This document shows positions 6,171 through 41,175 of a stretch of 64,000 nt of DNA, piece after piece. The translations under genes were made by a program, and so were the position numbers. Under the pieces are notes generated by a model. The model searched no databases. It worked only from the letters and a program-made list of their open reading frames with translations, and was not told the DNA's origin. Source of the stretch: an uncultured virus (IMG/VR IMGVR_UViG_3300032093_000081) (Duplodnaviria; Heunggongvirae; Uroviricota; Caudoviricetes); the IMG/VR virus record IMGVR_UViG_3300032093_000081, one strand, 5' to 3'. Every line of letters starts with the position of its first letter. Within the stretch, counting starts at the first letter, position 1.

Positions 6171-6171
6171 C

Positions 6172-6978: not shown

Positions 6979-7176
6979 ATGGCGAGCAGGAGATTATTTG
7001 ACGGTGCGCAAATCGAGATAAAATCAATCCCGATTGTAGGTCAGGCCGCTGCACCATCCGCTGTATTTTACATCAAAGTATCAGGGGTGTGGAAACAAGC
7101 AATCACATGGATAAAAGTATCGGGTGTTTGGAAACAAGCAACACCTTACGTTAAAATTGGAGGACAATTCAGATGA
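6979..7176 (+). CDS. Small protein with [YW]IKVSGVWKQA repeats (fibre-associated)
   Basis: About 2.5 tandem 13-aa (39-nt) repeats; abuts both neighbouring genes. Confidence 0.7.
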   Translation: MASRRLFDGAQIEIKSIPIVGQAAAPSAVFYIKVSGVWKQAITWIKVSGVWKQATPYVKIGGQFR

Positions 7177-13980: not shown

Positions 13981-14282
13981 TACAAATAAGCTATTACAGA
14001 GCCAGTAGCTATAGTAATGTCAGTAATATCTCCCCCTCCCGGTAAATAAACAAATGAAGGGAATACTACTCCTGACATATTTCGAGCGGTAACTTGTTCA
14101 ACCCCCTCTACTTTAAATACACTAATAGTAGTATTTTCTAAAGGCACTACTGCTCGGTATTTAACATTTGTATATGTACCAGCGGCAAGAATTACAAACC
14201 CGCCATTACCTGAAATTAATCCTAGTGTCCGGGCAATTTTTTCTGTAAGGCCGTAGGATTTTTTTGTTACTTGGAAGCTCAT
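13980..14282 (-). CDS. Small beta-rich structural protein (100 aa)
   Basis: Ends ITDITIATGSVIAY; preceded by TAACTTTG. Confidence 0.6.
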   Translation of the reverse strand: MSFQVTKKSYGLTEKIARTLGLISGNGGFVILAAGTYTNVKYRAVVPLENTTISVFKVEGVEQVTARNMSGVVFPSFVYLPGGGDITDITIATGSVIAYL

Positions 14283-14287
14283 GTGTA

Positions 14288-14295
14288 CAAAGTTA
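14288..14295 (-). promoter_or_regulatory. Bacteroidetes-type -7 promoter element
   Basis: TAACTTTG 5 nt before ATG 14282. Confidence 0.6.
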
Positions 14296-14306
14296 ATGTC
14301 TTTTGA

Positions 14307-17300
14307 TTAAAAGTCAGATTTAAATCCAGAACTAAAGTCCGACTTAAAGTCAGAACTGAAGTCAGAACCTTCTATTTTTTTAGACTTTCCTTTTTTGGGT
14401 TTCGAGGGAGTTGGAACATAATTTGGGTCTTTAGTTCTTAAAGGAATCATAGCTTCGACTTTCAAAAATCTTTCTAATTCATCTACTACTTCTACTAAAT
14501 TTCTTTCCTTTCTAAATGTTTCTCTAAATTTAGAAAAGTCGTTTTTCAGTTTCATAGTGGACGCGTCAGTTGTTATTGCTTCTACAATATTCCGAATAGA
14601 TGAAGAAGCATAGCTTTGGTCGGAAAGAGAAGCTATTTGTTGTTGAATTGCTTTATTTCCTGAAATAATATCATAAAGTTCTTTATTAAGAGGTCTGGAT
14701 TTTTCTGCCAACTTTAATAAATCAGGAGTTATTTCTTTTACTTTTTCAGAGTTAAATACTAGTTGGTCTCCTTCTTGAGTAATTACTTTAGCTAAAGTTT
14801 TATTAAGTTCTTTTTTCAAATCATCTATTTCTCTAGTTACTCGGCGAACTTCTTGAAATTCGTTTGTAGCTAATATTTTTACATCTCCATACATTAATGC
14901 CATTTGGGATTGTCTTTCTGGATTAAAAATATGATCTACAGGAGCAAGATTAAAAAATGTTGTAAGGGCAACTAAAAGTTTTGGAGGAGCTTCATCTATT
15001 GATTTGCCTCTAAGAGTATTTAATCTTCTTGCTACCCCAAATTCTTTACCCCCAAACTTTGGTATAAAGCCTCTTTCTGAGTACTGAGAAGTGCCAGAAG
15101 TAGGATCTCCCCAAGTAGCAGAGTCAAAAAACATAGCAAATTTATTATAAGCTGCTCTGGCAGTAGCGTCAATAGTAGTATCTAAGATAAAATTGACCCC
15201 TCTTCGCCAAAGATCTGGAGAAGATTGCATTTTATAGTTAGCGTATTTTTGGTACGTGTAATAACTATCTGCTGCTTTTATAACTGGGTTTGTTATAGTA
15301 GTTACTTCAGTATCGGCTTGAAGTAAAGTAAGATAAAAACTAAATTTTAGATACTTTTGAAGAGCTTCATCCCATTCATCGTCTCCTGATGCAAGAGCAC
15401 CAGCATAATGAATTAGTAAAGCGTTTAGTTTAAACTGAGCAACATAAGCAAGAGCTCTGATACCTAAAGCAATAGTAGTATCTAAAACCATTGGATTTCC
15501 TGCAAGGTTTTTAGCGGCTCCCGCTACAGTGTTGGAATCCCCTACACTTCGGGAACTACTTAAAAACAAAGCTTTCCCTAATTTTTTTTCTTTGAGAAGA
15601 TTAAGGCGAATATTCCTGTCAGAAAAATAGATACTATGATGAACTTTACCTGAATTCATAGAAACGCGAGACCCTCCATAATGGTTAGCAACTGATGGCA
15701 TAAACCATTTTCCTTTTAAGAAAAATACTGTTTGAAGGAATTCACTTTCCATCCAACTAGCCTGACTTCGTTTATAGTATTGTCCTGAACCTGAATAGTT
15801 AATGTCGTATATCTGATTTCGTAAATTGAGAGTAAGTGCTCTGACTCTTTGTTCTTTTGGCCCTCCATCTCTGAATCTATCTACAATAACTAACTCTCCG
15901 TCTTTTACAGTATACAAATCATTAAAGCGAACCATTTCTCCATTTATATCATACTTGCGGTTAAACAATACTTCTGCAGTTGTTGCAGCCGGTACAAAGT
16001 CTGCGTAGCCTACTGTGGCAGCAGAAAGAGTATTTAAAGTAGCCCATTTTTCAAACTTGGACTTTAGCCCCTTAGAGGCTACGTTAGAATACTCAGACCC
16101 GGGAATAGCATTCATATGCATATACATAAGAGTAGTTTTAGACATAGAGTCTTTGTCTACTCCTAAGTGAAAATTAAAATTGGTTTGAAACTTAGTAAGG
16201 GCTTTAAAAAATCCTAAGAAGGCTTCTCTTCTAGATATTCCGTTTTGCCTTAGAACAAGATAAATTTTGCTGTTCTGAGAAATAAACTGTTTGAAAGCAC
16301 GTCTGTAGTTAAAAGATAAAACTGCGCTGGCAGTCATCTTTCTAACCCCACCTATCCACTTGTTGAATAGCCGTATAAATTGGTTTTTGGCGTCCTCACG
16401 GTAGTTCAAATTACCGCTTCCTAAAAATATTCTACTTATGAATCGGTCTAATTCTTGTCTTTCTGTTTTATTAAGTCTTCCTTTTTCGGCTTCTGTCTTT
16501 TTATCAATTTCTTTAAAGAAGGCTGTTTGAGGAATTATATCTATGAGGTTTTTTGTTGCAGAAGAATGTGCGGCAAATTCTAATAACAGTCTATTTAAGT
16601 TAAGAGACTGGTCAGCAATAGCCATGTTTCTGTTTTTGAAAAGGCGACGTGGAGCCATTTCTCCAGAAGATAAATCATATTGCTCTAATGCTGAGTATTC
16701 AGAATCCCGATCATAATCTTTATTAGATACAAACTCTCGAATGAATCTCATTATGGGGTTTGCTAAAATGCCTTTAAACCTATCCCATTTGCTTAAATCT
16801 TGCAAAGGAGTAGTTTGCTCCATATACGTTTTTTGCCGAGTAGGAATAGCATAATTTTCTAATTGATAGTAAGAAGGAAGCCCTTCATTTAATTCATCAA
16901 AAATCTTCTCATATTCTTTTGCTATGCTTTGCTCTTCTGCAGTTAGTTGAGAAAATCCTGTGTTTACATACAGAGATTTTTTAGGACTAAGCTTTTTATC
17001 TTGGTAATTAGGGTTTTTAAACCTTTCATCTATTTGCCCTCTTTTCCAAATTCCATTAGGAGATATATCTATATACTGAGGGTCAGTAGGCAAGGTATGT
17101 TCCCATATCATTAAAGGCGTACCTTTTGTTCTTTGTATATATACTTCTACTCCAAATATGTCTTCTTCTGCCATAGTAGGAGTATCTATAAAGTGATGCA
17201 GTTTATACCATGGGTCAGATTCATACATTGCTTCCATACCTAAGTGTTTTAGGTATGCTTCTATCATAATCTTTTTTGCTTGGTTTGGATTGTCTTCAAT

Positions 17301-20300
17301 ATCTAAGGCATCATATATGTCTACGTTTTGTGTGAATATTGGGTTATCTAAATGAATCCGTTGTTCTCCCGCTTTTACTCGTGCTATGTCTGCCCAAGCT
17401 TGGTCTACTATTTCATTTATTTCTTTTAATTTCCCGGGGGTGTTACGTATCTTTTCTTTGTATTCAGAGATTCGATTATCTAGTTCTGCATAGTAGTAAC
17501 TTGTTTTTGTTCTTTCTTGTACTTCGGATAGCCGAGAAAATAAATCAGAGAGTTGGTCTCTTTGGTCCTGTGTAAGGTCAAGGCTATCTTTTAATTGTTT
17601 AAGCTCTTCTATTTTTTCCTGTAATTCTCGAACTTTTTTTACTTCCGGTTCAGTAAAGTTTGTGCCTACTGGTATTCCGTCTTCATCTTTTTTTGGAGCG
17701 ATTATTCTTCGGAGAAGGTCATTTATCTCTTTTATGTTTTCATCTCTTTCCCCTAAAATACTCTGCATCTCTTCAAAGATGGGAGTAAGTACCTCAGTAT
17801 AAAATTCAGGCTTTATTTGAGTTTGAGTGTTTTGACGTATCCACTTTTTATATCTCTCTTCTGCTTGTTTTAATTCTTGTTTTGTCTCAGCTATTCTTTT
17901 GTCAAGATTTTGTCTGTTTAAATCAGTTCTATTAGGGTCGGATAAAAGCTGTAAATAGTCAGATTGGAGATTTGACAGATTAGTTCGTACTCTAGATATT
18001 TCTCCTTCGAATTTCTTTTTTACAAAATCGAATCGGTCTAAAGGCTCTTGCTCTGTTAACTGAGTATATACCTTAGCATCACTAATAGCCTGATAGTATT
18101 TATTGAGTCGTTTAGCCCATTCTAATTCTATTCCGGTTTTTAAGTTTCCTTCTCTGTCAAAAAAGTTTCTAAGCTCTTTTATTTCTGCTCTTTTGATTTT
18201 TGCTTCAGAATAAGCATAATCTTCAATTAAGTCGTCTTCTACTAAGCCTTTAAAAGATTCGAAAGTATCTGCTTCTCTGTTAAGGAAGTCTAATCTTTCT
18301 CTAAGTTGTTTTCCAATTTCATCTTTTACTCCGTTTTCATCTTTATCAATTATATCCTGAATAGCATAATACTCATCAGTAAACTGAAGTTCAGTATTGT
18401 TTTCTATGAAATTGTTATAAGCTTCTTCTGCTCCTTCAAGAGCCGTCTCTAAATCAGCTATTTGTGCAGGGTCAACTCCTTCAGAAAGTGCGATGCTTAA
18501 TTTCTTTTCCGCTTCTTGTTTTGCAAAAAGCAAATCTGTGTATTCATTATGGAACTTTACATAATCTACCTCAGTATTAAGAAATGCTTTTTTGATTGTT
18601 TTAAGTTCTCCATTATCTATGTAGTTGTATTCTCTGGAAACTATAATGTTTTTATAGTACTTAGCAGTAAGAGTAGTTCCAATTAAACTCTGTATAGGAC
18701 GTATTTTGTCTAATCTTCCTTTTAGGTCAGTTATTTGATTGACTACTTTTTGGAAATTCTGGTTTTCTAAAGAAGCATTCTCCAAATAAGCAGCAAACAA
18801 CTGAACTATCGGCCTTCCAGATTTAAATAAAGGCTCAAGTAAAGACAGCCCTGATGTCTGAGAAGTTCCGGTATATACGTTGTTAATGAATAAATCTCCA
18901 ATAACTTTTGCTTTGTTCTCTCCAGTAGTAGCTTGTTCTAAGGTATCTATTAATTTAGATAGATTTTTGTAGGTTGTATGTTTCCCTTCGTTTTCACCAT
19001 CATTTTGTAAAAGGTCTGCACGAGATTTTTTAAACTCCTTTTCTAAGTTTGCTTGCTGTATCTTTAAATTGTGGATTAAGTCATCTACAAGTTTTCCATC
19101 TTTTAACTGAGGAATAAGAGCATCGTAAACAGACTCTTTTATGTAATCGTATATCTTTTCTTCTGAGTCAGTAGTTAATCCTACAAAGTCTCCAATGCTT
19201 TTAACTTGATTGTTAAATATTTGAAGCGGAGTCTTTTCTCCTTTTTTTAGTTCTTCTTTTGCTTTTTCATTTATCTGAGCTACTTGGGGAACATTTTCAA
19301 AAGCCTTATCGAAAACTTCAGTAAAGACTTTTGCTAGTTCCTCTTTGTCTTGAGCAGTTAAAGTAGTATCACTATTTAAAACGTCTAGATAATCAGAAAA
19401 CCTTTTAAAGTCTTGTTTAAGTTTTGGCAGTATGTGGAACTTGATTTCAAATACAAGTTTGTATTTTTTTTCTGGGGTTAATCTGTCTATGGAATTGTCT
19501 GAGACAATAGTATTTAAGGTTTTAGAAAGTCCTATACCGGCAGCGTAGTATTGAGCAGCATTTAGAATAGTCTCACTCATTGTCCTTTGAGACAATAAGT
19601 CCATAGACATATTCATTAGGTTTTTATACTGAGCCGCGTAATCAGGGATAACATTCTTTAAAAATTCTCTATCTACAAACTTGGTTTTTTGTTGAACGGA
19701 AGAAGGTCTCAGTTGTAAACTTCTATCTTCTACTGGCTTGCTTAATAATGCATTGAATCGAAGATGAAACTCACTTACGTTATTCGGAATGTCTTGTTGA
19801 GTCTCTAAATAATCAAGATATTCTTGAATGGCGTTTTCAATATCTGTCTTAGTGTCTACTGCTTTAAATCCAAATATGGTTCGGAATAAACTGCTTAATG
19901 CCTGTAGGATAGATTGAATGAAGTTTTTGGGTTGGGCAAGTTCTAAGTCTAAATTTTCTAAATGCTCCCTAAAATAAGGGTTAGACATAAACTCCGCGAC
20001 AAACTCTTCTACGTTAGTAAATCCATACGAAAAGTCTGGATGAAGAACAGAACTTGTATAGTCTGAGAACGCCTTTTCCATTTTTGCTTTAAAGGCTCTT
20101 TCTTCTGCAGTCCTTGGATTGTTTAAAGCAGATAAGGTATAAGCATGAGCTAACTCATGGACTAAATCACGAATTAATCTTTCAGTAGACTGAGGTTCGT
20201 ATGCATCTTTAGAAATATAAATAGTGTTTGATTTAGGATCATAGAATGAATTATCAATAGGAGTATCTGTCTGGTCAGGCATTACTATCTGCAGTGTAGG

Positions 20301-20930
20301 ATTCTTTGCGCTTAAATCCCTAAATGCAGTAAGCATTGACCTTTGAAAATCTTTCAGTTCTTCTAACTCAAGAACATTGTCAATAAGAGAGTTTAAGAAT
20401 CCTTTTCCTTTGTTATCTACTGCGCCTATAACAACAGGATGGAACTTAAACTTGGATAGATGGTTTTTGTTAATGAGTCTTTCTTGAGTGCCTTTAGTAG
20501 CTTTCGCTTTAAGATAAAAGCGTCCCTCTCTTTCTTCTACTTCTAAAGAAACAAACTGTAAACGAGGATTAAGATTAGTAGCAGAGATAATAGTATCTGC
20601 CATTTGTCGGGTAGGCAAAGCTGCACCTACCTTTCCATCATTAACCATTTCTTCAATAAGAGAAAGCCCTTCTTTTAACTCTGGGTCTAACTCAATGTTA
20701 TTGATGTTAAGAATGCTTTTTATAGTAGGCTCTCCTAACTTATTGAGATACGGAGAGAACGAAGGTTTGTTTTCAGTCCAATCAAATCCTACTACGTTTT
20801 CATATCGTTCTGATAGTGTAGATTCATAGAGGGCTTTGCCACCTAAAGCACCAGCTAAGTTTGTAGCGGCATAGTACGCACCTGATACTTTAAACCCTTC
20901 AGCAGTCTGAAATTTAGTAATACAAGACAT
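14307..20930 (-). CDS. Giant putative ejected virion protein with zincin metallopeptidase domain (2207 aa)
   Basis: FYDPKSNTIYI...LVHELAH...EEFVAEFMSNPYF (HExxH plus downstream E); largely helical; last gene of the RNAP cargo cluster. Confidence 0.8.
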   Translation of the reverse strand: MSCITKFQTAEGFKVSGAYYAATNLAGALGGKALYESTLSERYENVVGFDWTENKPSFSPYLNKLGEPTIKSILNINNIELDPELKEGLSLIEEMVNDGKVGAALPTRQMADTIISATNLNPRLQFVSLEVEEREGRFYLKAKATKGTQERLINKNHLSKFKFHPVVIGAVDNKGKGFLNSLIDNVLELEELKDFQRSMLTAFRDLSAKNPTLQIVMPDQTDTPIDNSFYDPKSNTIYISKDAYEPQSTERLIRDLVHELAHAYTLSALNNPRTAEERAFKAKMEKAFSDYTSSVLHPDFSYGFTNVEEFVAEFMSNPYFREHLENLDLELAQPKNFIQSILQALSSLFRTIFGFKAVDTKTDIENAIQEYLDYLETQQDIPNNVSEFHLRFNALLSKPVEDRSLQLRPSSVQQKTKFVDREFLKNVIPDYAAQYKNLMNMSMDLLSQRTMSETILNAAQYYAAGIGLSKTLNTIVSDNSIDRLTPEKKYKLVFEIKFHILPKLKQDFKRFSDYLDVLNSDTTLTAQDKEELAKVFTEVFDKAFENVPQVAQINEKAKEELKKGEKTPLQIFNNQVKSIGDFVGLTTDSEEKIYDYIKESVYDALIPQLKDGKLVDDLIHNLKIQQANLEKEFKKSRADLLQNDGENEGKHTTYKNLSKLIDTLEQATTGENKAKVIGDLFINNVYTGTSQTSGLSLLEPLFKSGRPIVQLFAAYLENASLENQNFQKVVNQITDLKGRLDKIRPIQSLIGTTLTAKYYKNIIVSREYNYIDNGELKTIKKAFLNTEVDYVKFHNEYTDLLFAKQEAEKKLSIALSEGVDPAQIADLETALEGAEEAYNNFIENNTELQFTDEYYAIQDIIDKDENGVKDEIGKQLRERLDFLNREADTFESFKGLVEDDLIEDYAYSEAKIKRAEIKELRNFFDREGNLKTGIELEWAKRLNKYYQAISDAKVYTQLTEQEPLDRFDFVKKKFEGEISRVRTNLSNLQSDYLQLLSDPNRTDLNRQNLDKRIAETKQELKQAEERYKKWIRQNTQTQIKPEFYTEVLTPIFEEMQSILGERDENIKEINDLLRRIIAPKKDEDGIPVGTNFTEPEVKKVRELQEKIEELKQLKDSLDLTQDQRDQLSDLFSRLSEVQERTKTSYYYAELDNRISEYKEKIRNTPGKLKEINEIVDQAWADIARVKAGEQRIHLDNPIFTQNVDIYDALDIEDNPNQAKKIMIEAYLKHLGMEAMYESDPWYKLHHFIDTPTMAEEDIFGVEVYIQRTKGTPLMIWEHTLPTDPQYIDISPNGIWKRGQIDERFKNPNYQDKKLSPKKSLYVNTGFSQLTAEEQSIAKEYEKIFDELNEGLPSYYQLENYAIPTRQKTYMEQTTPLQDLSKWDRFKGILANPIMRFIREFVSNKDYDRDSEYSALEQYDLSSGEMAPRRLFKNRNMAIADQSLNLNRLLLEFAAHSSATKNLIDIIPQTAFFKEIDKKTEAEKGRLNKTERQELDRFISRIFLGSGNLNYREDAKNQFIRLFNKWIGGVRKMTASAVLSFNYRRAFKQFISQNSKIYLVLRQNGISRREAFLGFFKALTKFQTNFNFHLGVDKDSMSKTTLMYMHMNAIPGSEYSNVASKGLKSKFEKWATLNTLSAATVGYADFVPAATTAEVLFNRKYDINGEMVRFNDLYTVKDGELVIVDRFRDGGPKEQRVRALTLNLRNQIYDINYSGSGQYYKRSQASWMESEFLQTVFFLKGKWFMPSVANHYGGSRVSMNSGKVHHSIYFSDRNIRLNLLKEKKLGKALFLSSSRSVGDSNTVAGAAKNLAGNPMVLDTTIALGIRALAYVAQFKLNALLIHYAGALASGDDEWDEALQKYLKFSFYLTLLQADTEVTTITNPVIKAADSYYTYQKYANYKMQSSPDLWRRGVNFILDTTIDATARAAYNKFAMFFDSATWGDPTSGTSQYSERGFIPKFGGKEFGVARRLNTLRGKSIDEAPPKLLVALTTFFNLAPVDHIFNPERQSQMALMYGDVKILATNEFQEVRRVTREIDDLKKELNKTLAKVITQEGDQLVFNSEKVKEITPDLLKLAEKSRPLNKELYDIISGNKAIQQQIASLSDQSYASSSIRNIVEAITTDASTMKLKNDFSKFRETFRKERNLVEVVDELERFLKVEAMIPLRTKDPNYVPTPSKPKKGKSKKIEGSDFSSDFKSDFSSGFKSDF
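14310..14366 (-). repeat. 12-nt period coding repeat (SDFS/SDFK) at the protein C-terminus
   Basis: Encodes SDFSSDFKSDFSSGFKSDF-stop. Confidence 0.85.
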
Positions 20931-20936
20931 TACTCA

Positions 20937-20944
20937 CAAAAATA
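20937..20944 (-). promoter_or_regulatory. Bacteroidetes-type -7 element within an inverted repeat
   Basis: TATTTTTG 6 nt before ATG 20930; overlaps CTCACAAA-n9-TTTGTGAG. Confidence 0.55.
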
Positions 20945-20972
20945 CACCATTTGTGAGAATTAGGTACTCACA

Positions 20973-23900
20973 CTAGAGGTCGCACGCTTCTTCTATAAAT
21001 CCTAAGTCTTCAATGTCTTTTGTAAAAGGAGGTAAGTTATCAATGATGTCTTCCATTTCATTTATAGGAATGATAGGTTGAGCTTTTTGTACATTAGAAA
21101 CAGAACCGATAAACTCTTTAAATCCTTCTATATCTTGTTTACCTGTATCTAAGTATTGAGAGTATAGTTGTAGAGCTTGTTGTTTTTGTTGTGGGGGTAT
21201 TGTAGAGGTAACTTCAAAGTAATCCCCTTTATCTATAGCAATACCTTTATCTATTAAAGATTTCCAAACTCTACTTGCAGAATCATTTATATCTTGTTTG
21301 CCAAAAGCTTCTGATTTTAAAGTTTTGCCTTCTTCTGCTAATTTATTTGCAAGAGCTAAATAAACTTTTGTACCAAATCCTTTACCTTGAAATTCTTTTT
21401 CTAATTCTACTCCAGCTATTCCTATAGAAGATGATATATAGCCTTCATTATCTACAGAGATAATTCCTGCATATTTACCATTTATTTTAATAGGATAAGA
21501 TATTGCTTCTGGATTATCTGGATTAAATCTTGGTTTATCTAAAGTGACATTAGAAACACTTTGAAACCCTAAAGCTTCATACACTTGATTAGCTAATTCA
21601 GGATTAGAATCAAATAGTTCTTCTACTCCGGGTTTTATTTTAGAAACAGATTCAGTATAAATTTTAGTTCCATATTGAACAAATCCTCCTACAAGTTCAT
21701 CTACTTCCGGTTCTGTTAAATCTTTTCCTGTGAATTTTTTAATCCAATTTTTTATTGAATTTATGAGTTCTTTCCACCAAGAAGGTTTAGGTTTGTCTGT
21801 TAAAGTTTCTGCCCATCTTGCCGCAAGTTCCATTAACAATTTTGCTTTACCCTCTTGACTATCTAAAGTAAAGCCATAGTCAAACATTAACTTTTCTAAA
21901 GATTTATGCCCAGTACGCCCAAGTAACTCAGGCAGTTTTTTCATTAGTTGAGATTCTGCAGCAAAAAGAACATCTTTTAATTCTTGTAATCCTCCAAGTT
22001 CTTTAGCCATTCTAATCATTCCTCTGTGAGCAACTTCATGAATAGCTACTTTGCCAGCTTCTGGTATTGGAGTATTAGAAGAAACCACTACTACTTTATC
22101 TGTTCTTGGGTCATAATATCCTTGTATTAATGCTGTATTAGTTAAAGAAAAAGGCAAATCTGCAAGGTATGTTGGATTTTCATTAACCCATTGCTCATAA
22201 ATAAATTGGAGGTCTGGAAATTCTACTTGTACTAAATCGTCAAGATATTTAAAAACTCTTGGGTCTTTTGTTACTGCTTGTCTAATTAATTCATGATAGT
22301 AATCAGTTCCAAAAGGAGTAACTTCAGTTATATTGAAAGGTCTATGGTTAACAGCTAAAGTAAGTATTTGCTCATTTTGTTGCATTTCTAAAGGGAAATA
22401 TTCAAAAAAATTAAATACTTCATTTCCACTAAGATGTACTTCTTCTAAAACTTTTTCTACTGTATCAAGTGAGGTAATGCGGCGTTGTATATCATAATAA
22501 TAGTCTGGGGCATCCTCAAAATATAAGTCATTGTCTGGCCTCATACCTTCTAAGTAATCTAGATATCCTTCGTCTTCTATTTGATCTATATCAGTTTCAT
22601 TTCTACTTTTTGCCGCTATTGCTCTATCTAAACTAGGATTGTTTTTATCTAAATTGTGTTTTTCGAAGAAAGCAAGAGTGTCCTCTAAATGGTCAATAGA
22701 TGCCATTCCATTGTTTGCTCGAGAAGTTACTTCTTTTACTTTACGAGGTTTACCGGAAATTTCTTCTGGTTCTACTTCAATTCCAGCTACAGTTACCCCA
22801 TTAACAATAAGAAGATAGTTATCATAGTTTGCGACGTAATAATCTGACATAGCGCCAGATGTGCACCAAGTATGAGGAGAAAGTTTTTTAAGTAAGTCTA
22901 TATTCCTAGTATATTCTTCTGAATTTTCAAAAGAAGTTTTTGGAATATGTATCCAATAACCTGTATTACTTGCAGAAGGTTCATGTGTTACTGAATCTGA
23001 AACTGAAGCAACTGCTTCTAAATCATATAATTTTCCTAGTCTATTCGCCTCATGTGGCTTATTCATTAATATACCATAGGTATTTTCTAAAGCTAAAGGC
23101 GAAAGTTGTAATACATATTTTGATTTTCTATTAGGGTTTGTAAGATACTTAACAGCATGAGCTAACATAATATCTCGAAATACTATTGGGTATTTTTCTA
23201 AAGCAGACTTCCAATTACGAAAACTTTCTAATGCAAGTTTATTACTCTTAAATTCCACATATTTATTTTCATCTGCTTTCCTATCATAAGATTTTTTTAA
23301 AATCTGTTCTAATTGTTCGTTGCTTTTAATTCCTTTAATATTCGCTAATCGGTCTTTGTTAATACCTACCCAATTGACTAATAATAAATCAGTAATGCCG
23401 TTTTCTGCCAAAATATCCTTAATGGCAAAAAAGATATTTGTATTTCCTAATACATAACTAGGAACTTCTTCTACAATTTCAATGCTGTTATAAATTTCAA
23501 TGGGAAGTTTTTTAATTTCATTTCTGAATTGAGTATCTCTATTAGATTTTTCTTCATAAGAATCTTCTTTTTGGGCTGCTAATGCATCGGCATAACTAGG
23601 ATATACTTCTCCTCCGTAAATAAACTCTGAACTGCTCCTTTTTTCTATTCCCTGTTCTACATCAAATGTAGGCTGAGTTAGTTTTTTACTTGGACTAAGA
23701 GGAGGCAAAAAATCTTCAATAGCAATTTCAGATTTATCTGTTCTTTGAGAGAACATATCTAATTGAGTAGGAGCGTTAGGAAATGCTTGCTCTAAACTTT
23801 TTTCGTTGTTCTTTACTTGGTATGCCTTTAAGAGGCTAGGACTTACAGTCACTTGTATAGCTCCCCCATCATTATACCTTTGGTATCCAAACGTATCCCA

Positions 23901-24131: not shown

Positions 24132-24136
24132 AATGT

Positions 24137-32755: not shown

Positions 32756-32757
32756 TA

Positions 32758-35700
32758 TTAGCAGTTATTGGAGTTATTAGTTGGATTAGAATTGTTTTCT
32801 ACAAATATAACGTTAGGTCTGCTAACAAACGGAGATGGGGCAAAATTGGTACCTAATCTTCCAACCATAGAAATAGAAGTATCTTGTGCTTTTACTCCGT
32901 AGGGCTGTAAGTCTAAAAGACCTATATTTTTTAGTGTTTTTCCTTCATAAGAAGTTTTTGCGCCTAGAATTCCAATACTTAAAATCTTCGGCAATATTCC
33001 TTGAGCAAGATGAATATAAGTTCTTTGTTGAGTTTCCCAACCGTTTCTTTTTTCGTTAAACTTGGGCTTTATATCGTCTCGTGCGGAACCAAATTTGATG
33101 TTTTTCATATCTACAATATGAACACTTCCTGAGTCATGAACAAGAATAATATCAGGAACACCGGCTACTCCTTCAAAGGTTTCGCCTTTAGATTCAAAAG
33201 ACTCTTGTAAGTCAGCGTATAAAACTACTTTATCTGTAAAGATTGTGTATCCATTCATTTGCCATTCGTTTTTCAATGCAGTTAACTCTTCAATGTACTT
33301 AATTATTTGTTCATTATCTACTTTTGGAAGCTCAGGGAGATTTTGTTTTGCTTTTACTTGTTCTAATACACTAGGTATATACTTTTCAATTTCCCCAAGA
33401 GACACTCCGCCTAAAACATCTCTTCCAATAATATCGTTAATATCCCCCATTACTACTGCATCTTCTAAAAGAGCAGTTTTTTCTATATCTCCTTTTTTGT
33501 TGTAGGCAGATTGGCTTATATAGTTTTTACCTCCTATTACATATACCCTGTTACCTGCTGGAGTTAGTTCTGGCTCTCCAACTTTTTCAGAAAACTTGAT
33601 TAAATTTTTTACGCTACTTATTGCAAATTCAAATGCACTATTTCCTTGTGCTTTGTCTGGCATTGGGCCTTCTCGTCTAACAGGAGGTTGGGGGCTAGGT
33701 TGAGGAGGTGGAGCTGTGGGAGCTGCGGGAGCTGTTGGAGTTTTTGCAGAAGGCTGACTTTTTTGTTGAGGAGCAGAATCACCTTTAGGTTTTTCTTTGG
33801 ATTCTTTTTCAAGACTTTCTAGCGTTTTTATCCATTGATTTAAACTGCCTAATCCAATATTTTTCTTTGCACGAGTAATAGCAACATATGCCAAATTAAA
33901 TTCTTGAGTTCCAGGCCACTTAGTTTTACTTAGTGGCTTAAAATCATCTGCTATTTGAACGTTATCCCATTCTCCTCCTTTAGATTTATGAGCCGTAGTA
34001 ACTAAAATATCATAAGGTTCGGCAGAATAAGGATTTTCTTCTGGGATGTTAATGGTTTTTTTAAGTAATTCTTCTAATTCTTCTGTCTGTCCATTATTAG
34101 TAAGTTTAAGTATTTTTGTTAATGCTGGGTCGTTTTCTTTAGATTCTAGTACTTCATCCCAAGTATTGTAAATATCAAAAGGGCTATCTTCAACAGGCGG
34201 CCTGTTTTTGCCTTTTTTGTCTTTTAGCCATTTTATCTCTGCTATTAAGTTAAAAAGCTGCTCTCTTTGTTTAGAATATATTCCAACTCTTTTTCCTTGC
34301 TCTACATAAGCAGAAATAAAATCAATTGCCCCAGAATTAGTTCGACTGATAATTACATTTGGGTCTGATATTTTACTTTGAGATATTTTACTTTCTCCCC
34401 CTTTTCCTTTAAGTCTTAAATTGCTTCCTAAGTAGTTAAGAATAATATTTCCTAATTCAGCTATTTCTGGCCCAAATCTCCAAGAAGTACTTAAAGGCAA
34501 ATCATTTTCGGCGACTATATTTTCAAGTTGATTTGTCGCGCCTATAAATTCATAGATAGCTTGATTCTCATCCCCCACATAGATAAGCTGAGTAGGTTGA
34601 TTGTTAAATATTTCTCCTGTAACAGGGTTAATATCCTGAGCTTCATCCATCATAATAACTGAATATTCCGAACTTAAATCGTGAGGAAGGCTAGACCAAA
34701 CTTTCATATAATGTGATATCCTAAATGGAATCTCTGAGTTCGTACTAAGTGACAATTGCCAATATTTTTGGGCTAATTCTAAAATATAAGTATACTCATC
34801 TGCGGTAACATAATTGTTCTCAACCTCCTTAGAAAAAGTTTTATTTTGTAACATAACTTTTTCTACAAGCTCCATCTTTATACTCGTATCAGAACCAATA
34901 GCGTATTCATCTACTATTTGTTTTATGAGTTTTAAAATAGAATGCTTTGCCTTAACTCTACTTCCTATTTTTTTATCTTTTAAATCCAATATTCTTAATT
35001 CATCTTTAAAATGTACCTTAGTCTCTGCTTTGAGTTGACGTCCTGCTTTTTCGGGTAAATGAGAAGTTCTTAAATCATTTAATAAAGCTTGGCGTGCTAA
35101 TGAATCTCTGGTTCTTACCTCTACTTTGTTTCCAAATCGAGCCATTTTAGCTTTTGCTTCTTCTTTTGCAGATCTATTAAATACTACATATAGTATTCTT
35201 TTTCCTTCTGGTAGATTTGGAGCAAGAGCCTCCATAGTTTGAATCAAAGTAGTGGTCTTACCTGTTCCGGCTAAAGCACGGACTACAACATTTCCCCCTT
35301 TTTTTGCCGCGTCGATAACAGCTTGTTGTTCTGCAGTAGGAGTGAACTTTTTTGCTCCAGCAACAGGTGCTTCTTCTTGAACACTTGCTGCTCCACTTAT
35401 TATATCTAAAGGGCTAACATTAGAATCAACTTCTTCTTGACTAGTAATATTTTCTTCTACTTGAGGGGCAGAAGATTCTAAAGCAGCTAGTTCTGCATCA
35501 TATTTAGCATTAATTTTATCTCTTAGTTTATTATTAAATTCAAAGAAAGGTGTGGTAATAGCTCCACTAATCCTGTCTTCTAAATAATTCATTAAAGTTG
35601 TAGTTTCATTTCCAAAAAGTACAGTATATCCGGCTTGATTTAATATTTCAACAATTTGGGCGGGTGTTTTTCCATCTTTAATATTCCCATCAATAACTCT

Positions 35701-38700
35701 CTCAATAGTTGCTTTTTGCTTATCTGTAACTTCTGTATTTTCACCATCAGGATTTATCTTTTTAAAAGTAGTTTCTCCAGAAGGGAATCTATTATTTTCT
35801 CCTTGTCTTCTTCTTTCTATGTCAGCTTTTTTAGCTTCTAAATCAGCTTTAGCATCTGTAGGAGCAGTAGGTTTTTGTTCTTCTATTTTAGGTTCAACAG
35901 GAGTCTCTACAACAGGAACAACTGCAGGTTTTACTTTAACTATTGGAAGAGTGTTAACTTCTTCTAATGCCTGTAATGCAGTATCAACATCTGGAATAGA
36001 TGCAGTAAACCCTACGCTTTCCTCGTTGGTTGTATAATCATACCCAAAATCAATACTTAAGTCACTAATAGACACTTCCCCTCTGTCTCTTACATGTTTT
36101 CTAATGGCGTTTCCTAATCTAGCCGATTTGTATTTTTCATCTCGAGAAATAGTCAAAGTGTACAGATTTGGCCCACTATCATTTACATTTCCCTCGTCGT
36201 CAAACCTTACTATGTTACCGTCTTTTGTAACATAGCCAAGAATAACATTTAGGTCTTTAAAGCCTTGCTTTTCCGAAGTTGTCTTTTCTCCTATTCCATT
36301 GTAATTTCCAAAGAAAATCTTGTTTAAATGATAGTCTAGTTCTTTGGGCGGGAGTATGCCAGAAAAAGTAGTTTCAAAGAATTTAGTTACTTCTTGTCTA
36401 AATTCTTTTAGTTTAGACGAATCTCCTTCTTGTTTGAGATTTAAATATTCATTGTAGTATTTTTCTAATTGAGTTACTGCCTGAGCTTTCTTGTTGTTTT
36501 TAAGAAAACTAAATAAATCGGTAACTTGAATCTTGTACAGTGGACGATTATTTAGAATTTGGATTGTAACTTTTTGTGCAGCTTTTGCAAAAATGTGATT
36601 TTTTGATTTTGGGTCTTTTCTGTCTCGATTGCTATAAGAAATAAAATAGGAAAACTTATAATTCTCAGAATCTTCAAACTTAGAAGTGTCTTCTGATTCT
36701 GTTGGTTCTTCCGGAGTCTCTTCTACTTTTTCTTTTTCCTCTACTTTTTCTTCTTCTATTTGTTCTTCTTTTGGCTCAACAACTTCTTCGACAATAACTG
36801 AGTTAGTAAAAGCCGGGATGTCATTTTTTTTACTGCTTAAAAGTTTTCCTACTTCAAAGTTATTTAGAAGGTCGTTGTTTGTTTCTTCAGCAAAGAATTC
36901 AGCTGGAGCACTAAAAAGCCTGTTTAGTAATGCTTCTAGTTCAGGAGTATCTTCATTTTTAAGAGAGGCAACAAACATAGCCCGAGCAATAGCTTGCTCT
37001 TTATTTAGAGCGCCTAGTATATAACTTCTAAGTTTTCTTTTTGATGTTTTTTTGTTCTTAGAAGAAGAGTTAGGATCAGTATAATAGTCTGCCTGAGTTT
37101 TTAGATTTCGATTAAAATCAGTGATAGCTGCTACTCTGTCTACTTTGAGGTCTGTCTCTTGAGGAGGGGTAGAATCATCTTCTAGTTCTTCAGGTGTTTT
37201 TTCTTCTTCTCTTTCTTTTGCCTCTAAAGCGTCTTGAGCTCTTTTTGCTTCTTCTTTTCTTTGAGCTTCTCTTGCTTCTTCTTGTTGTTTCTTTTGGTCT
37301 TCAATAAATCCTTCTCTGAAATCAGTGGTTCTATTCCAGAGTTCATTAAAAGATTCAAAGTCTACAAACTCTTTTTGTGATATTTCAGCATTCTTTAAAA
37401 ACAACAAAGAGTAGTACATCTCAGGGGAAAGAAGTCTGTTAAAAATTTCTTCTCCTGTAATCTTATTCGCCCTAATCATTGGCTCAAACTTTTTAATAAG
37501 AGCCTCTATAAAAGAATTACCTTTTTGGACTATTCTGTCAAATATGTCTTCTGCTTTTTGTTTTTGTTCTATTAGATACTCTATTTCTTCTGGGGTTAAG
37601 TCGGTTTCTGTAAGTTGAGCTGTTGGAGTTCCTCTTCTCTTAGCTATCTCTTTTAAAACTTGTTTTTCTACTTCATTTTTAGTTTCTTCTGCTTCTTGAT
37701 ACATCCCTAATATCTGAAAGGCTTCGTCTAAGATGCCTTCAGTATCAGGATTAAGACTTGCTTGAATAAGAAGTTTTTCAACTTCGTTCAAGTCCATAGC
37801 ATCTATACCGGCTTGTTTTTCTTGGCCTTCTTCAGCATACGCATCTTCTAATAAAGGATTAAGTGTTCCGTTATCTTTAGCTTCTTGAATAGCTTGTACT
37901 CTTTCTTGGTATACTCTGTCAACTTCTGAAATAACAAAATCTAATGGCTCTTTTACTTTATCAAAAGACTCTTTATAGTTTATTTGAGCAACGGCTCTTT
38001 CTCTTTCATGTTCTTCTTTCTTTTTTTCTAACTCCCTAAGACTAGTTACAGGAAAATAAGCAGTAACATTCTTTTTTGCTATGTCTATCAAACGAGTCTT
38101 TTTTTCTTGCTCTGTTAGTTTTTCAAATGCAGAACTCCTTCTTTCGTAGTTTTCAATGTCTTTAGATATCTCTTCTGCGTTCTTGATATAAGCTTCTTTG
38201 TCTTCATCAGAAAGTTTTGCAAAGTCTTTACTGTCTAAAGTAAATGCATCATTTCCTACTTTATTTAATACCGCTCTAAAGTAGTCATACTGAGCCTCTT
38301 CATCTTCCATAAATGTAGACTCATCTACAAGATTACGGAAAGGTTTGCTCTTTACTATTTTAGTATAGTTATCTATTTGAGCAAGTGCTTTGATTGCTTG
38401 TTCTTGGGATATCTTACCTTTTTGGAGTGACTTGTTTATTTTGTCTTTATAGAACTCTGGACTATTTGCCATTCTATAAGCACTCTGTATATCGTTTTCT
38501 CTGTAGAAACTTCCGGCTCGTACTGCGCCCATAGGTGCGGTCATAAACGCGCCTCCGGCAAAAGCATTTATCAAAGACTCTGGGCTTAACTCTTCTGCGT
38601 CTGCCCCTCTCTCTGTAGCATAAACGGAATTTAAAAAATGGTTTCCTAACTCAGCTACTACTTCTTCAAATCCTTCTCCGGGATTAAAACCTATTTTGTA

Positions 38701-41175
38701 TCCTGTCTTTGCAACTTTGCCGCTAACTATAAGCCCCTTTTTAACTTTATAAGCTGTTTGAGCTAATAATTTTTTAGAGGCTGGGGACAAATCAGGAATA
38801 ATACTTACCAAGTCCATATAGTCTTGTAAGTTTTTAAAAGGCCTTCCTGCAAATCTTAAAAAGGCACTTTCTTTTGGAAGATACCTTTGGGCGCTAATTA
38901 TATCAATATCAGGAAAGAATCCTTCAGTTAATCCTTCTATTGCAGAACTCCACCATGCTAATACTTTGGCTTTCTTTTCAACGTCATCTACTTTGTTTGC
39001 ATATAACTCTTTAACAGTTTGACGATAAATGCTGGGATAAGTACTTGCAGTTACTGCTAAGAAAGTAGGAACACGAGATTCTAAAAGCCCAATGCCGAAT
39101 TTTGCCAGCCCCGTATTGTTAGAAGCAGTGGCACGTATAGTGGTTCTCCATATTTGCTGTGCAGTCTTACCGGCAGTTAACTCTGCATACTTAGCAAGAC
39201 GTGCTGTCTTTAATACAGAGTCTGCTGTTTTAGCAGCCCTAGCAGCTAAAATGCCTTTAACAGTTAATCCGCCTATTGACATTAAACCCCCACTAAGAAG
39301 CATAGAAGGAAGCTGTTGAGCAAGTACAGGCCCCATATTTCGGCCAATGCCTCTACCCATTTTAAATCCTAAGAAAGCATTGTCGTCAAAGTAAAAGAAT
39401 TGGTCTGCGCTAATAATTCTTCCTACTTGAGCACTTGCTATTTTGTCAATAACTGGATAATCGTCACTTTGAATGTATTCTTTTAAACTAGACTTGATTT
39501 CGTTTTGATAGTCTTGGACTGTCTTTCCTCCTTCAGCAGGAAGTTCTACTCCTCCAGCAGTAAGCTTTGCCCGCTTAATTGCCATATCATATGCAGAACT
39601 TACTTGCCAGTTTCTAATCCCTCTAGGAATAGTCTCAACAATACCAGAAACTAAATCATTTAAAAAAGTAATATTTCGGATGTCATAAGGAGCCCTTTCT
39701 AGTCCAGCATTTAAATCTGCTGCAGCTTGTTGTTTGGCTTGAGCCGCAATGCCTTCTTTTGCGTTGTTTAATCTCCAATCTGTTTTATTGTCTATTTGTA
39801 AATCAGTTTCAATAAGCGCTTTTCCTATTTCAGAGTTCTCTTTTAGTTTAGAGGCGACTGCATTAATCTGAGTATTATAACCATCTACTATTTTTTGTTT
39901 TTCCGGGTTAGTTAAATTTTCAAAATTAGGAAAATTCTCTACTTCTTGTAAAAGCTCTTCTACTTTTTTTGTTCCTTTTATTTGTTGGTTTACTATTTCA
40001 TTGCCTATAGCATTCATCAATTTTGCATTGATGCTTACTAAATCTTCAGAGATAGCTCGTTGTTGTTGGACAGCTACTCCATTAATTGCCGATTCTGATT
40101 CGTCTTTTGAATTAAGATAAGTCAGGAACGCTTGCCCATAATCTGTACGAGTAGGAGGCTTATTAGGGTCATCTAACCTATGATTACTAAGATATGTTAA
40201 TGAAGATAATATATCATTTTCAGACTGGCCTAAAACCGAAGAGATTCTTCCTAAAATATTTTTTTGAACATCTGCTGGTACTGGCTGCCCACTAAGAATA
40301 GGCTGAATAAGTTCTTTTGCTTTTGGATTATTTAAAACAGCCTGTGCTACTAGTTGTAGATTTTGTCCCTCAATGATTTGGTCAATCTGCTGTAAAGCTA
40401 ATTGATACTTCTCTTTGTTTTTATTTTTTTGTACTTCTTCTTTTTGTAAATCTACTTTATAACGCCCTGTTACTACTTCAGGTTCTATCACTATGCCTTT
40501 TAATTCATTTTCTAATTTATATTTTAAAGCAAAGGCTTTATCGATTTTTTCCGATTGAGGAATTTGAGGGTCAAATAAACTAGAAAAATCTTCTGAAGAA
40601 GTACGGTTGGTTTGAACTCTCTCTTCAAATAAATTCTTTTGATAATTTAATTGTCGAGAGTTTGGATTCACCCAATCTGTAATAGGGTCAGGTAAAGGCG
40701 CCTCCATTTCTCTTAAATAATTTCCTCTAGTAGAAGGAATAAAAAATGGAGAATCAGAACTAACTGTTTTATTGGTTCTAGGGGGTATTGTGCCTCCCGG
40801 TAAAACTACTGGCTTTGAAGTATTTGTAATCTTAAAAGCATTTTGCGCTTCTTCTGGAGTATTTACTTTAATAGGTACGTTACTTTTTTGAGGAGAAACT
40901 AAACTTGATGTATTAACTTCAGAACTACTGTTTGTACTTGGCGCGGGCTGAGAAGATATTAATCCTTCTGTTGAAGCAACACTTGAAGTCGAACTAACAT
41001 TAGTCCCAGCATTAGAAAAAAGAGAGGAATAGTATTTTCGATAAGAATCTCTTATTTCTGTACTTTCATTTTGAAATTTTCGGATTATTTCATTTTCAAC
41101 TATGTCTCCTGCTTCACTAGGAGTATACCCTTTTTTGATTAAGGAAAGTTGACGTAGATAATCTATGTTTGGCAT
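32758..41175 (-). CDS. Giant putative ejected protein with UvrD-like SF1 helicase and PD-(D/E)xK nuclease (2805 aa)
   Basis: Helicase motifs PTAEQ, ALAGTGKT, VFN, DEAQD, VGDENQAIY, SWRF, TAHKSKGGEWDNV, YVAITRA; then GVPDII...IVDMK...QQRTY. Gly/Ala hydrophobic segments in the N-terminal third. Confidence 0.88.
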   Translation of the reverse strand: MPNIDYLRQLSLIKKGYTPSEAGDIVENEIIRKFQNESTEIRDSYRKYYSSLFSNAGTNVSSTSSVASTEGLISSQPAPSTNSSSEVNTSSLVSPQKSNVPIKVNTPEEAQNAFKITNTSKPVVLPGGTIPPRTNKTVSSDSPFFIPSTRGNYLREMEAPLPDPITDWVNPNSRQLNYQKNLFEERVQTNRTSSEDFSSLFDPQIPQSEKIDKAFALKYKLENELKGIVIEPEVVTGRYKVDLQKEEVQKNKNKEKYQLALQQIDQIIEGQNLQLVAQAVLNNPKAKELIQPILSGQPVPADVQKNILGRISSVLGQSENDILSSLTYLSNHRLDDPNKPPTRTDYGQAFLTYLNSKDESESAINGVAVQQQRAISEDLVSINAKLMNAIGNEIVNQQIKGTKKVEELLQEVENFPNFENLTNPEKQKIVDGYNTQINAVASKLKENSEIGKALIETDLQIDNKTDWRLNNAKEGIAAQAKQQAAADLNAGLERAPYDIRNITFLNDLVSGIVETIPRGIRNWQVSSAYDMAIKRAKLTAGGVELPAEGGKTVQDYQNEIKSSLKEYIQSDDYPVIDKIASAQVGRIISADQFFYFDDNAFLGFKMGRGIGRNMGPVLAQQLPSMLLSGGLMSIGGLTVKGILAARAAKTADSVLKTARLAKYAELTAGKTAQQIWRTTIRATASNNTGLAKFGIGLLESRVPTFLAVTASTYPSIYRQTVKELYANKVDDVEKKAKVLAWWSSAIEGLTEGFFPDIDIISAQRYLPKESAFLRFAGRPFKNLQDYMDLVSIIPDLSPASKKLLAQTAYKVKKGLIVSGKVAKTGYKIGFNPGEGFEEVVAELGNHFLNSVYATERGADAEELSPESLINAFAGGAFMTAPMGAVRAGSFYRENDIQSAYRMANSPEFYKDKINKSLQKGKISQEQAIKALAQIDNYTKIVKSKPFRNLVDESTFMEDEEAQYDYFRAVLNKVGNDAFTLDSKDFAKLSDEDKEAYIKNAEEISKDIENYERRSSAFEKLTEQEKKTRLIDIAKKNVTAYFPVTSLRELEKKKEEHERERAVAQINYKESFDKVKEPLDFVISEVDRVYQERVQAIQEAKDNGTLNPLLEDAYAEEGQEKQAGIDAMDLNEVEKLLIQASLNPDTEGILDEAFQILGMYQEAEETKNEVEKQVLKEIAKRRGTPTAQLTETDLTPEEIEYLIEQKQKAEDIFDRIVQKGNSFIEALIKKFEPMIRANKITGEEIFNRLLSPEMYYSLLFLKNAEISQKEFVDFESFNELWNRTTDFREGFIEDQKKQQEEAREAQRKEEAKRAQDALEAKEREEEKTPEELEDDSTPPQETDLKVDRVAAITDFNRNLKTQADYYTDPNSSSKNKKTSKRKLRSYILGALNKEQAIARAMFVASLKNEDTPELEALLNRLFSAPAEFFAEETNNDLLNNFEVGKLLSSKKNDIPAFTNSVIVEEVVEPKEEQIEEEKVEEKEKVEETPEEPTESEDTSKFEDSENYKFSYFISYSNRDRKDPKSKNHIFAKAAQKVTIQILNNRPLYKIQVTDLFSFLKNNKKAQAVTQLEKYYNEYLNLKQEGDSSKLKEFRQEVTKFFETTFSGILPPKELDYHLNKIFFGNYNGIGEKTTSEKQGFKDLNVILGYVTKDGNIVRFDDEGNVNDSGPNLYTLTISRDEKYKSARLGNAIRKHVRDRGEVSISDLSIDFGYDYTTNEESVGFTASIPDVDTALQALEEVNTLPIVKVKPAVVPVVETPVEPKIEEQKPTAPTDAKADLEAKKADIERRRQGENNRFPSGETTFKKINPDGENTEVTDKQKATIERVIDGNIKDGKTPAQIVEILNQAGYTVLFGNETTTLMNYLEDRISGAITTPFFEFNNKLRDKINAKYDAELAALESSAPQVEENITSQEEVDSNVSPLDIISGAASVQEEAPVAGAKKFTPTAEQQAVIDAAKKGGNVVVRALAGTGKTTTLIQTMEALAPNLPEGKRILYVVFNRSAKEEAKAKMARFGNKVEVRTRDSLARQALLNDLRTSHLPEKAGRQLKAETKVHFKDELRILDLKDKKIGSRVKAKHSILKLIKQIVDEYAIGSDTSIKMELVEKVMLQNKTFSKEVENNYVTADEYTYILELAQKYWQLSLSTNSEIPFRISHYMKVWSSLPHDLSSEYSVIMMDEAQDINPVTGEIFNNQPTQLIYVGDENQAIYEFIGATNQLENIVAENDLPLSTSWRFGPEIAELGNIILNYLGSNLRLKGKGGESKISQSKISDPNVIISRTNSGAIDFISAYVEQGKRVGIYSKQREQLFNLIAEIKWLKDKKGKNRPPVEDSPFDIYNTWDEVLESKENDPALTKILKLTNNGQTEELEELLKKTINIPEENPYSAEPYDILVTTAHKSKGGEWDNVQIADDFKPLSKTKWPGTQEFNLAYVAITRAKKNIGLGSLNQWIKTLESLEKESKEKPKGDSAPQQKSQPSAKTPTAPAAPTAPPPQPSPQPPVRREGPMPDKAQGNSAFEFAISSVKNLIKFSEKVGEPELTPAGNRVYVIGGKNYISQSAYNKKGDIEKTALLEDAVVMGDINDIIGRDVLGGVSLGEIEKYIPSVLEQVKAKQNLPELPKVDNEQIIKYIEELTALKNEWQMNGYTIFTDKVVLYADLQESFESKGETFEGVAGVPDIILVHDSGSVHIVDMKNIKFGSARDDIKPKFNEKRNGWETQQRTYIHLAQGILPKILSIGILGAKTSYEGKTLKNIGLLDLQPYGVKAQDTSISMVGRLGTNFAPSPFVSRPNVIFVENNSNPTNNSNNC

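Follow-up and report, generated by a model that had tools for sequence, protein, structure and literature searches.

A 64,000-nucleotide (nt) stretch of DNA from an uncultured virus of the Caudoviricetes (IMG/VR record IMGVR_UViG_3300032093_000081), referred to here as the window, carries on its minus strand four consecutive genes for giant proteins, designated A to D, that are almost devoid of cysteine (Cys). The few Cys residues that these proteins retain are found, with a single exception, at the ends where one protein of the series meets the next, and this arrangement recurs in homologous proteins throughout the Crassvirales. Judged by its genes, the window represents a distant crAss-like phage, and it is proposed that A–D are best explained as internal cargo proteins, packed in the particle and injected. 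The four genes are as follows (lengths in amino acids, aa):

Protein A: 32758–41175, minus strand; open reading frame (ORF) of 2805 aa, 314 kDa; first member of the putative chain.
Protein B: 24137–32755, minus strand; 2872 aa, 327 kDa; virion RNA polymerase (RNAP).
Protein C: 20973–24131 from the first ATG, minus strand; 1052 aa, 119 kDa; extra middle member.
Protein C, alternative reading from a TTG start: 20973–24149, minus strand.
Protein D: 14307–20930, minus strand; 2207 aa, 254 kDa; last member, homologue of gp65 of phage phi14:2.

The summed mass of the four proteins is 1,013 kDa, and their genes are tightly packed, with intergenic gaps of 2, 5 and 42 nt at A-B, B-C and C-D, respectively. 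Protein A contains a UvrD-like helicase domain at residues ~1919–2455. In B, the catalytic motif GGDYDIDK at residue 1568, whose counterparts are GSDFDIDK in phi14:2 gp66 and GSDFDVDK in crAss001 gp50, is followed by a DprA-like domain at 2350–2572; residues 1162–1599 align with residues 987–1391 of gp66 (BLASTP E 1e-10), and annotated crAss RNAPs are tblastn matches of B. Residues 256–401 of D align with residues 243–374 of phi14:2 gp65 (BLASTP E 3e-17) and include an HExxH motif at 258–262, of which H258, E259 and H262 are invariant among seven sequences. The conserved core of C (residues ~200–830) has an invariant HExxH of its own at 698–702, and a GNAT-like region lies at ~870–950. With an invariant HExxH in both C and D, two zincin-like domains would travel in the chain.

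The seven Cys codons of the block are distributed as follows:

A Cys2805, the last residue and sole Cys of A: 32761–32763, minus strand, TGC; faces B Cys4.
B Cys4, in MSSC: 32744–32746, minus strand, TGC.
B Cys2870, third from the end, in DCQG then stop: 24146–24148, minus strand, TGT; faces C Cys4.
C Cys4, in MSGC: 24120–24122, minus strand, TGT.
C Cys423, in SPxTWCT: 22863–22865, minus strand, TGC; a conserved domain residue, not a linker.
C Cys1050, third from the end, in EACDL then stop: 20982–20984, minus strand, TGC; faces D Cys3.
D Cys3, in MSC, sole Cys of D: 20922–20924, minus strand, TGT.

An earlier note on this DNA, made from the sequence alone, had claimed that some 8,900 residues contain only seven Cys, with one on either side of each inner junction and none at the two outer ends. 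A recount of the ORFs reproduced the number and every position exactly, and the facing layout was borne out in all four proteins. There are seven Cys in 8,936 residues (0.08%), six of which lie no more than four residues from the three inner junctions; B has Cys at residues 4 and 2870 only, and neither the N-terminus of A nor the C-terminus of D has any. The probability that at least six of seven Cys would fall by chance within the 57 inner-terminal positions is 4.7e-13. By comparison, 35 of the 2034 residues of the window's muzzle protein are Cys (1.72%), and in ordinary ORFs of 150–999 aa from related loci Cys makes up 1.16% of internal residues and an N-terminal Cys occurs in 7 of 52 cases. 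Cys depletion is specific to the A–D block.

The true start of C had been named as a point on which the pattern could fail. A TTG start would put its first Cys at residue 10; translation from the ATG retains MSGC, like the MSSC of B. The resemblance between the two proteins extends further along both ends: the N-termini MSSCRISP of B (32732–32755) and MSGCNITP of C (24108–24131) are near-identical, and the C-termini of B, DVDNLTDINPDC (24137–24175), and C, DIEDLGFIEEAC (20973–21011), are similar, giving the common forms MS[SG]C[RN]I[ST]P and D[VI][DE][ND]LxxIxxxC. From these strings, it looks as if gene C took copies of both ends of B on entering the chain.

A search with B returned 120 proteins, many of which have just the DprA-like domain in common with it. 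With residues 2–8 and the last 13 residues taken as terminal windows, a Cys is found in both for 55 of them, solely in the C-terminal one for 20 and solely in the N-terminal one for 11, and 34 have no Cys; all 86 proteins with any Cys have a terminal one, and the internal Cys density is 0.062% over 459,908 residues. The 14 best homologues (P0001–P0014, 54–100% of the length of B) have a C-terminal Cys without exception, an N-terminal Cys in 13 cases, and not one internal Cys over 39,380 residues. The remaining N-terminus, that of P0008, is read as probably a short gene call, because it starts 12 residues later than its close relatives. A particularly close relative, P0002 (3361 aa), is 97% identical to B and carries an extra 2OG-Fe(II) oxygenase-type domain (PF13532), having otherwise kept the two terminal Cys as its only ones; such a difference shows that domains are gained rapidly within the chain.

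The members at either end of the series have one Cys each, on the inner side. All 11 homologues of D (P0121–P0131) have Cys at residue 3–5, none has a C-terminal Cys, and 10 of the 11 have exactly one Cys in total. In each of four close homologues of A (P0282–P0284 and P0286), the sole Cys is no more than two residues from the C-terminus and the N-terminus has none; the other six matches of the A search, which have the helicase domain alone in common with it, are without terminal Cys. Over 73 distinct N-termini, the Cys stands at residue 3 (32), 4 (22), 5 (11), 6 (4), 7 (3) or 2 (1), and over 78 distinct C-termini it lies 0–4 residues from the end in 75 and 7–9 residues from it in three. The flanking residues are variable apart from a tendency towards I, L or V two residues past the N-terminal Cys, and the C-terminal one is often directly preceded by acidic, Asn or His residues. 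The terminal Cys pattern is retained at protein identities of 20–50%.

The same rule holds in the phages crAss001, cr128_1 and phi14:2, in four Suoliviridae genomes and in 26 IMG/VR loci. In phi14:2, the sole Cys of gp67 (1797 aa) is its last residue, the RNAP gp66 (2180 aa) has Cys3 and Cys2179 only, and gp65 (1421 aa) has Cys3 as its sole Cys. The corresponding proteins of crAss001 are gp47 (2341 aa), with Cys2339 alone, gp50 (2412 aa), with Cys5, Cys1334 and Cys2404, and gp49, with a sole Cys at residue 5; the three have a combined mass of about 694 kDa. The arrangement in cr128_1 is that of crAss001. The Suoliviridae genomes cr130_1, cr4_1, cr10_1 and cr50_1 each encode a giant with a C-terminal Cys, then a protein with Cys at residue 3–5 and no C-terminal Cys, the last protein of cr10_1 running past the edge of the locus, so that its end falls outside the data.

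The junctions were tabulated for the window and the 26 IMG/VR loci, which were obtained via the DprA-like domain, with one locus (L005) excluded as a 100%-identical copy of the window sequence. ORFs of at least 150 aa were taken from the first ATG, nested ORFs were dropped, identical terminal strings were counted once, and the junctions entered were those with an ORF of at least 1000 aa:

Junctions with both Cys: 31.
Junctions with neither Cys: 9.
Junctions with only one Cys: 5.

All five discordant junctions border a small ORF, of 160–283 aa, inserted between the partners (in L012, L028 and L036), and in L028 an ORF with Cys5 situated ~3.4 kb further along is the likely partner. These inserts have an ordinary Cys content. 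Middle proteins of 261–318 aa that carry both terminal Cys occur in six loci (L014, L015, L016, L018, L033 and L039), and L033 has four proteins in a row, with three junctions. The earlier note had proposed counting Cys positions across the cargo proteins of Crassvirales as a check, and the outcome agrees with what it expected: the terminal Cys is kept in homologues of A, B, C and D, facing termini carry it, and the outer Cys is absent from every chain seen whole. Taken together, these comparisons indicate that the terminal Cys rule is a real, order-wide feature of the Crassvirales.

Could the pattern nevertheless be the product of chance, composition, a gene-calling artefact, or a nucleotide signal at the junctions? 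The gaps of 2, 5 and 42 nt made a junction signal conceivable, and the choice between TTG and ATG leaves the start of C ambiguous. However, a chance probability of about 5e-13, the retention of the pattern at 20–50% identity and the rarity of N-terminal Cys in ordinary ORFs (just the 7 of 52 noted above) all speak against an accident of composition or annotation. A signal in the DNA is further contradicted by the variable spacing between the Cys and the start or stop codon, and by partners that are parted by inserted genes (L012, L028 and L036). In crAss001 and cr128_1, moreover, gp47 is encoded on the opposite strand, convergent with gp50-gp49, yet N-terminal and C-terminal Cys remain equal in number; since the partner genes converge and the end of gp47 has no adjoining gene start, the rule belongs to the proteins and not to junction DNA. 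A junction-DNA signal was rejected on the strength of these convergent genes, and the whole family of such explanations is considered extremely improbable.

The Cys pairs also follow the way in which the cargo is divided among genes. In cr50_1 and cr10_1, gp47-like and gp50-like parts form one polypeptide and the fusion point is without Cys. The 3681-aa giant of locus L013 has Cys5 and Cys3681 only, and is collinear with the giant of L014 plus its 308-aa neighbour; the position of the joint is free of Cys in L013 and occupied by a pair in L014, L015, L016 and L039. The core of C behaves likewise: stand-alone proteins of ~880–1100 aa have both terminal Cys, last proteins of 2300–2780 aa that have the core as their first part have the N-terminal Cys only, and giants of 5690–6121 aa that enclose it (P0142 and P0153) have no terminal Cys. 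In P0138, one of these last proteins, the core runs on into a D-like region and the joint lacks a Cys pair. Giants that have no partner have no Cys, as in L037 (4048 aa) and L032. On present sequences, then, a Cys pair stands where genes are split and none where they are fused, and facing pairs appear only where the cargo comes in several pieces. The earlier suggestion that a new cargo gene could join simply by carrying both terminal Cys sits well with these data, both with the small middle proteins that have the two residues and with the C family, paired when alone and unpaired when fused.

Cys avoidance itself looks, from these proteins, to be general among injected proteins, and may be a general mark of proteins translocated unfolded. 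Cys-free giants are widespread, and include P0053 and about 30 related proteins, P0288, and proteins of L024 and L041; among the examples are a 4885-aa protein of Moraxella bovis (M15 metallopeptidase by its source name) and a 4566-aa helicase-domain protein of Streptomyces.

The seventh Cys of the block, C Cys423, has a different character from the other six. The surrounding motif is SPxTWCT, all 21 aligned homologues have the residue, and P0153, a fused protein of 6121 aa, has it as its only Cys. It belongs to the conserved domain and is not a linker, and may be a catalytic residue of an injected enzyme. A Pfam search with residues 200–560 of C gave no match; PcfJ-like clusters (PF14284) were retrieved from the ESM Atlas for residues ~200–520 with a score of 0.94, which serves as a lead only. 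An AlphaFold2 model of C had a mean predicted local distance difference test score of 66.8 and a predicted template modelling score of 0.35, with residues 1–5 and 1011–1052 below 50 on the former scale, and a Foldseek comparison of this multidomain model with the PDB returned no match at E <= 0.001. Co-folding of residues 1–650 of D with residues 900–1052 of C gave a score of 0.00 (mark 0.34), from single sequences only and without controls, which counts neither for nor against a contact.

The explanation that we favour, and regard with moderate confidence as the best available, is a chain of cargo proteins joined by terminal disulfides. Selection would have purged nearly all Cys from A–D, sparing one wherever an end adjoins a neighbouring protein. 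Within the particle, a disulfide would connect the C-terminal Cys of one protein to the Cys at residue 3–4 of its successor (A-B, B-C and C-D), and the four polypeptides would act as a single unbranched chain of ~1.0 MDa, in which the disulfide substitutes for the peptide bond lost when a giant gene was split. The linked chain, partly unfolded, could pass the tail channel, and the reducing cytoplasm would then open the links, freeing the separate enzymes. Because the bonds would sit at the extreme ends, the joined chain would be topologically linear, an internal link making a loop or branch unable to pass the channel; this suggests a topological reason for the strict confinement of Cys to the ends. 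A wider proposal is that the Crassvirales, and independently at least one cyanopodophage, assemble a linear disulfide pseudo-polyprotein of up to ~1 MDa that is threaded as a single strand in a redox-gated train, the Cys pair being a portable coupler for split, fused or interrupted cargo genes. This is put forward tentatively, its chances falling somewhat below even.

The components of this explanation differ in their standing. The facing arrangement of the Cys, the balance of ends and the split/fusion rule, as read from the genes, give strong support to pairwise contact between one protein and the next. That the contact in crassviruses would be a disulfide is suggested by analogy, on the basis of a structure from cyanophage A4, other disulfides in crAss001 virions and the lack of a conserved metal site. 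Continuity of the chain, the timing of oxidation and reduction, a packaging stoichiometry of 1:1:1:1 and the order of ejection are what we infer beyond this. The head-to-tail linkage advanced in the earlier note has thus held in so far as every sequence-level prediction came out as expected and one structural precedent exists in A4, the bond itself being carried over to crassviruses from that analogue.

The precedent comes from cryo-electron microscopy of the pre-ejectosome of cyanophage A4, in which a disulfide joins gp27 Cys1715 to gp26 Cys5 (PNAS 2025, PMC12002296). There, gp27 inserts its C-terminal helix into gp26, within a pentameric ring and in the outer pre-ejectosome layer, and the bond stabilises this helix (PMC12002296). 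In the database record of Anabaena phage A-4L, gp27 (1717 aa) has Cys1715 as its sole Cys, gp26 (1114 aa) has Cys5 as its sole Cys, and the two genes are adjacent on one strand. Inter-protein disulfides are also present in crAss001 virions, where the structural atlas places them in the tail and gp57 (PMC10172136).

The end balance, facing layout and split/fusion rule demand a pairwise contact and no particular chemistry, and the facing Cys could mark a real contact in which the thiol takes another role, either by binding a shared metal ion or within a non-covalent docking motif. A reducing host cytoplasm would be easier to reconcile with such a contact, and the acidic, Asn and His residues frequent before the C-terminal Cys could be read in the same direction. 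Each terminus, however, has a single conserved Cys with variable flanks over the 73 N- and 78 C-termini, which leaves no recognisable metal site, and the sole solved case of this signature, in A4, is a disulfide. A contact of another chemistry is accordingly thought unlikely.

Similarly low is the probability assigned to disulfides that do no more than fasten pairs of proteins together within an ordered body inside the particle, close to the portal, with no part in threading or in the order of ejection. In such a body, pairing might deviate from gene order, through self-closing of B or links between copies. This is what the A4 bond appears to do, holding the C-terminal helix of gp27 in gp26 within a pentameric ring (PMC12002296), and an ordered body would agree with the likeness between the B and C termini and with the capsid of crAss001, which is said to have room for about 6 copies of each RNAP-associated protein (PMC10172136). 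A mere lock could sit anywhere, though, whereas the Cys is within residues 2–7 in 73 of 73 N-termini and within the last 0–9 residues in 78 of 78 C-termini, and the outer Cys is always missing in first and last members.

Several observations nonetheless weigh against the terminal-disulfide chain, or limit how far it can be taken. Translation takes place in a reducing cytoplasm, and gut anaerobes are numerous among the hosts. The balance of ends alone cannot separate a chain from other pairings, such as B joined end-to-end with itself and A with D, and, because the termini of B and C are alike, terminal sequence by itself does not obviously determine the order A-B-C-D. Common ancestry means that the counts given above are not independent events. 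Among fused forms, the giant of cr4_1 (L004) has a lone Cys at residue 2180, the inferred fusion point, in a context like that of gp47-type C-termini; it may be a relic of recent fusion. The A4 proteins are without detectable similarity to A–D, making the precedent one of analogy, not homology: homology was rejected after gp26–gp29 were compared with the chain proteins of the window, crAss001, phi14:2, the Suoliviridae and the IMG/VR loci, for which the best BLASTP E was 0.03 (small database) and phmmer found none at E up to 10. Finally, none of the disulfides seen so far in a crassvirus joins gp47, gp50, gp49 or their homologues to one another; the cargo proteins are not resolved in the crAss001 atlas, which, in its accessible part, lists disulfides solely for the tail and gp57 (PMC10172136).

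The block adjoins crass-type tail genes, lying on the minus strand downstream of the muzzle and ring genes. Its recognisable neighbours are:

Muzzle protein: 49753–55857; Pfam crAss_MUZ, E 1e-22.
Ring protein 1: 55873–56706; Pfam CrAss_Ring_1, E 5e-12.
Two Cys-poor ORFs upstream of the block: 41213..46899, minus strand; 573 aa with 0 Cys, and 1321 aa with Cys187 and Cys194.

The two upstream ORFs match, by position alone, the place of the crAss001 cargo proteins gp46/gp45, and are placed outside the chain because they have no terminal Cys. The tail region (49753–61336) is Cys-rich, the opposite of the cargo: a 732-aa ORF (57945–60143) has 19 Cys, a 173-aa ORF (60140–60661) has 10, including both ends, and the last two residues of a 172-aa ORF (60818–61336) are Cys. 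This composition fits a disulfide-stabilised tail like that of crAss001. Elsewhere in the window, positions 4001–8000 have a GC content of 0.485 (~0.35 outside this part) and encode a 957-aa ORF and a 391-aa ORF with a laminin-G / SO2946-like C-terminal domain; an antisense 144-aa ORF at 7081–7515, with 17 Cys, is probably spurious. A megablast of the region against a phage collection gave no match, and searches of solved structures with the B and C sequences gave 0 matches each. A locus search with C alone as query found only a 100%-identical contig. Promoter and terminator sites in 13900–33000 were no commoner than in shuffled sequences.

Crassviruses have to accommodate ~0.7–1 MDa of polymerase-associated protein in the capsid and move it out by way of a narrow tail, the channel being given as narrower than 50 Å (PMC10172136). 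The terminal Cys rule provides a concrete hypothesis for the stoichiometry, order and release of this cargo, and crAss001 and phi14:2 are both cultured. Coupling through terminal Cys would explain how cargo genes split and fuse so freely; if it is true, such a coupler lets new enzymes, such as protein C or the inserts of 261–318 aa in relatives, enter without loss of delivery. It also offers a signature for injected cargo in metagenomes, namely giants that are Cys-free but for a Cys at residue 3–7 and/or in the last ~13 residues.

The closest known systems are the RNAP blocks of crAss001 (gp47/gp50/gp49) and phi14:2 (gp67/gp66/gp65), which share with the window a homologous RNAP, a last protein with a zincin HExxH, a place after the muzzle and ring genes, and the Cys rule. 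The window differs in placing an additional, fourth protein (C) after the polymerase and before the final member, and in the UvrD-like helicase domain of A. The RNAP-block proteins of crAss001 have been found in virions by mass spectrometry (PMC10172136), and the phi14:2 record notes the block proteins as virion components; the window phage is known from its genes alone. A full-text literature search, whose coverage excluded most subscription journals, found no description of a terminal Cys rule for the Crassvirales. In the text seen, the word 'cysteine' is absent from the crAss001 atlas, whose seven mentions of 'disulfide' concern the tail and gp57 (PMC10172136), and neither term appears in the accessible part of the phi14:2 preprint (bioRxiv 10.1101/2020.03.07.982082) or in Iyer et al. 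2017 (PMC5512222).

Beyond the crassviruses, A4 gp27/gp26 resembles each junction of the window in its Cys signature, in its adjacent same-strand genes, and in consisting of internal ejection proteins. It differs in that there is a single pair, in a member of the Saffermanviridae without an RNAP, whereas the window has three consecutive junctions; in the part of the article available, the bond is given as a structural detail and no general rule is drawn (PMC12002296). The claim that such a linkage had never been described therefore stands for the Crassvirales rule within the literature searched and falls for the kind of bond, which had been solved in A4. A–D are thus a multi-protein version of a link known from one structure and, for the Crassvirales, not in print as far as searched. 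Cys-free giants of other phages lack the facing arrangement: the virion RNAP of the N4-like phage Pylas has 0 Cys in 3819 aa and is a single chain with neither facing terminal Cys nor a partner, and in T7 neither gp15 (747 aa) nor the first 1135 aa of gp16 contain a Cys, again with no facing Cys and no partner chain. The sole Cys of T7 gp14 is at residue 2.

A final comparison is with the polyvalent proteins, which, like A–D, are giant, multidomain and delivered with DNA, with helicase, DprA-like, metallopeptidase and acetyltransferase modules (PMC5512222); the criterion for them, several unrelated domains in very large polypeptides, describes A–D as well. In these proteins and the fused crAss polyprotein, as in the present block, modules occur both fused and split. 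For the fused forms, release through autoproteolysis by the zincin protease has been proposed (PMC5512222; bioRxiv 10.1101/2020.03.07.982082). Set beside such proteolytic release, the terminal Cys rule points to redox chemistry as a second means by which the modules of injected cargo may be coupled and uncoupled.

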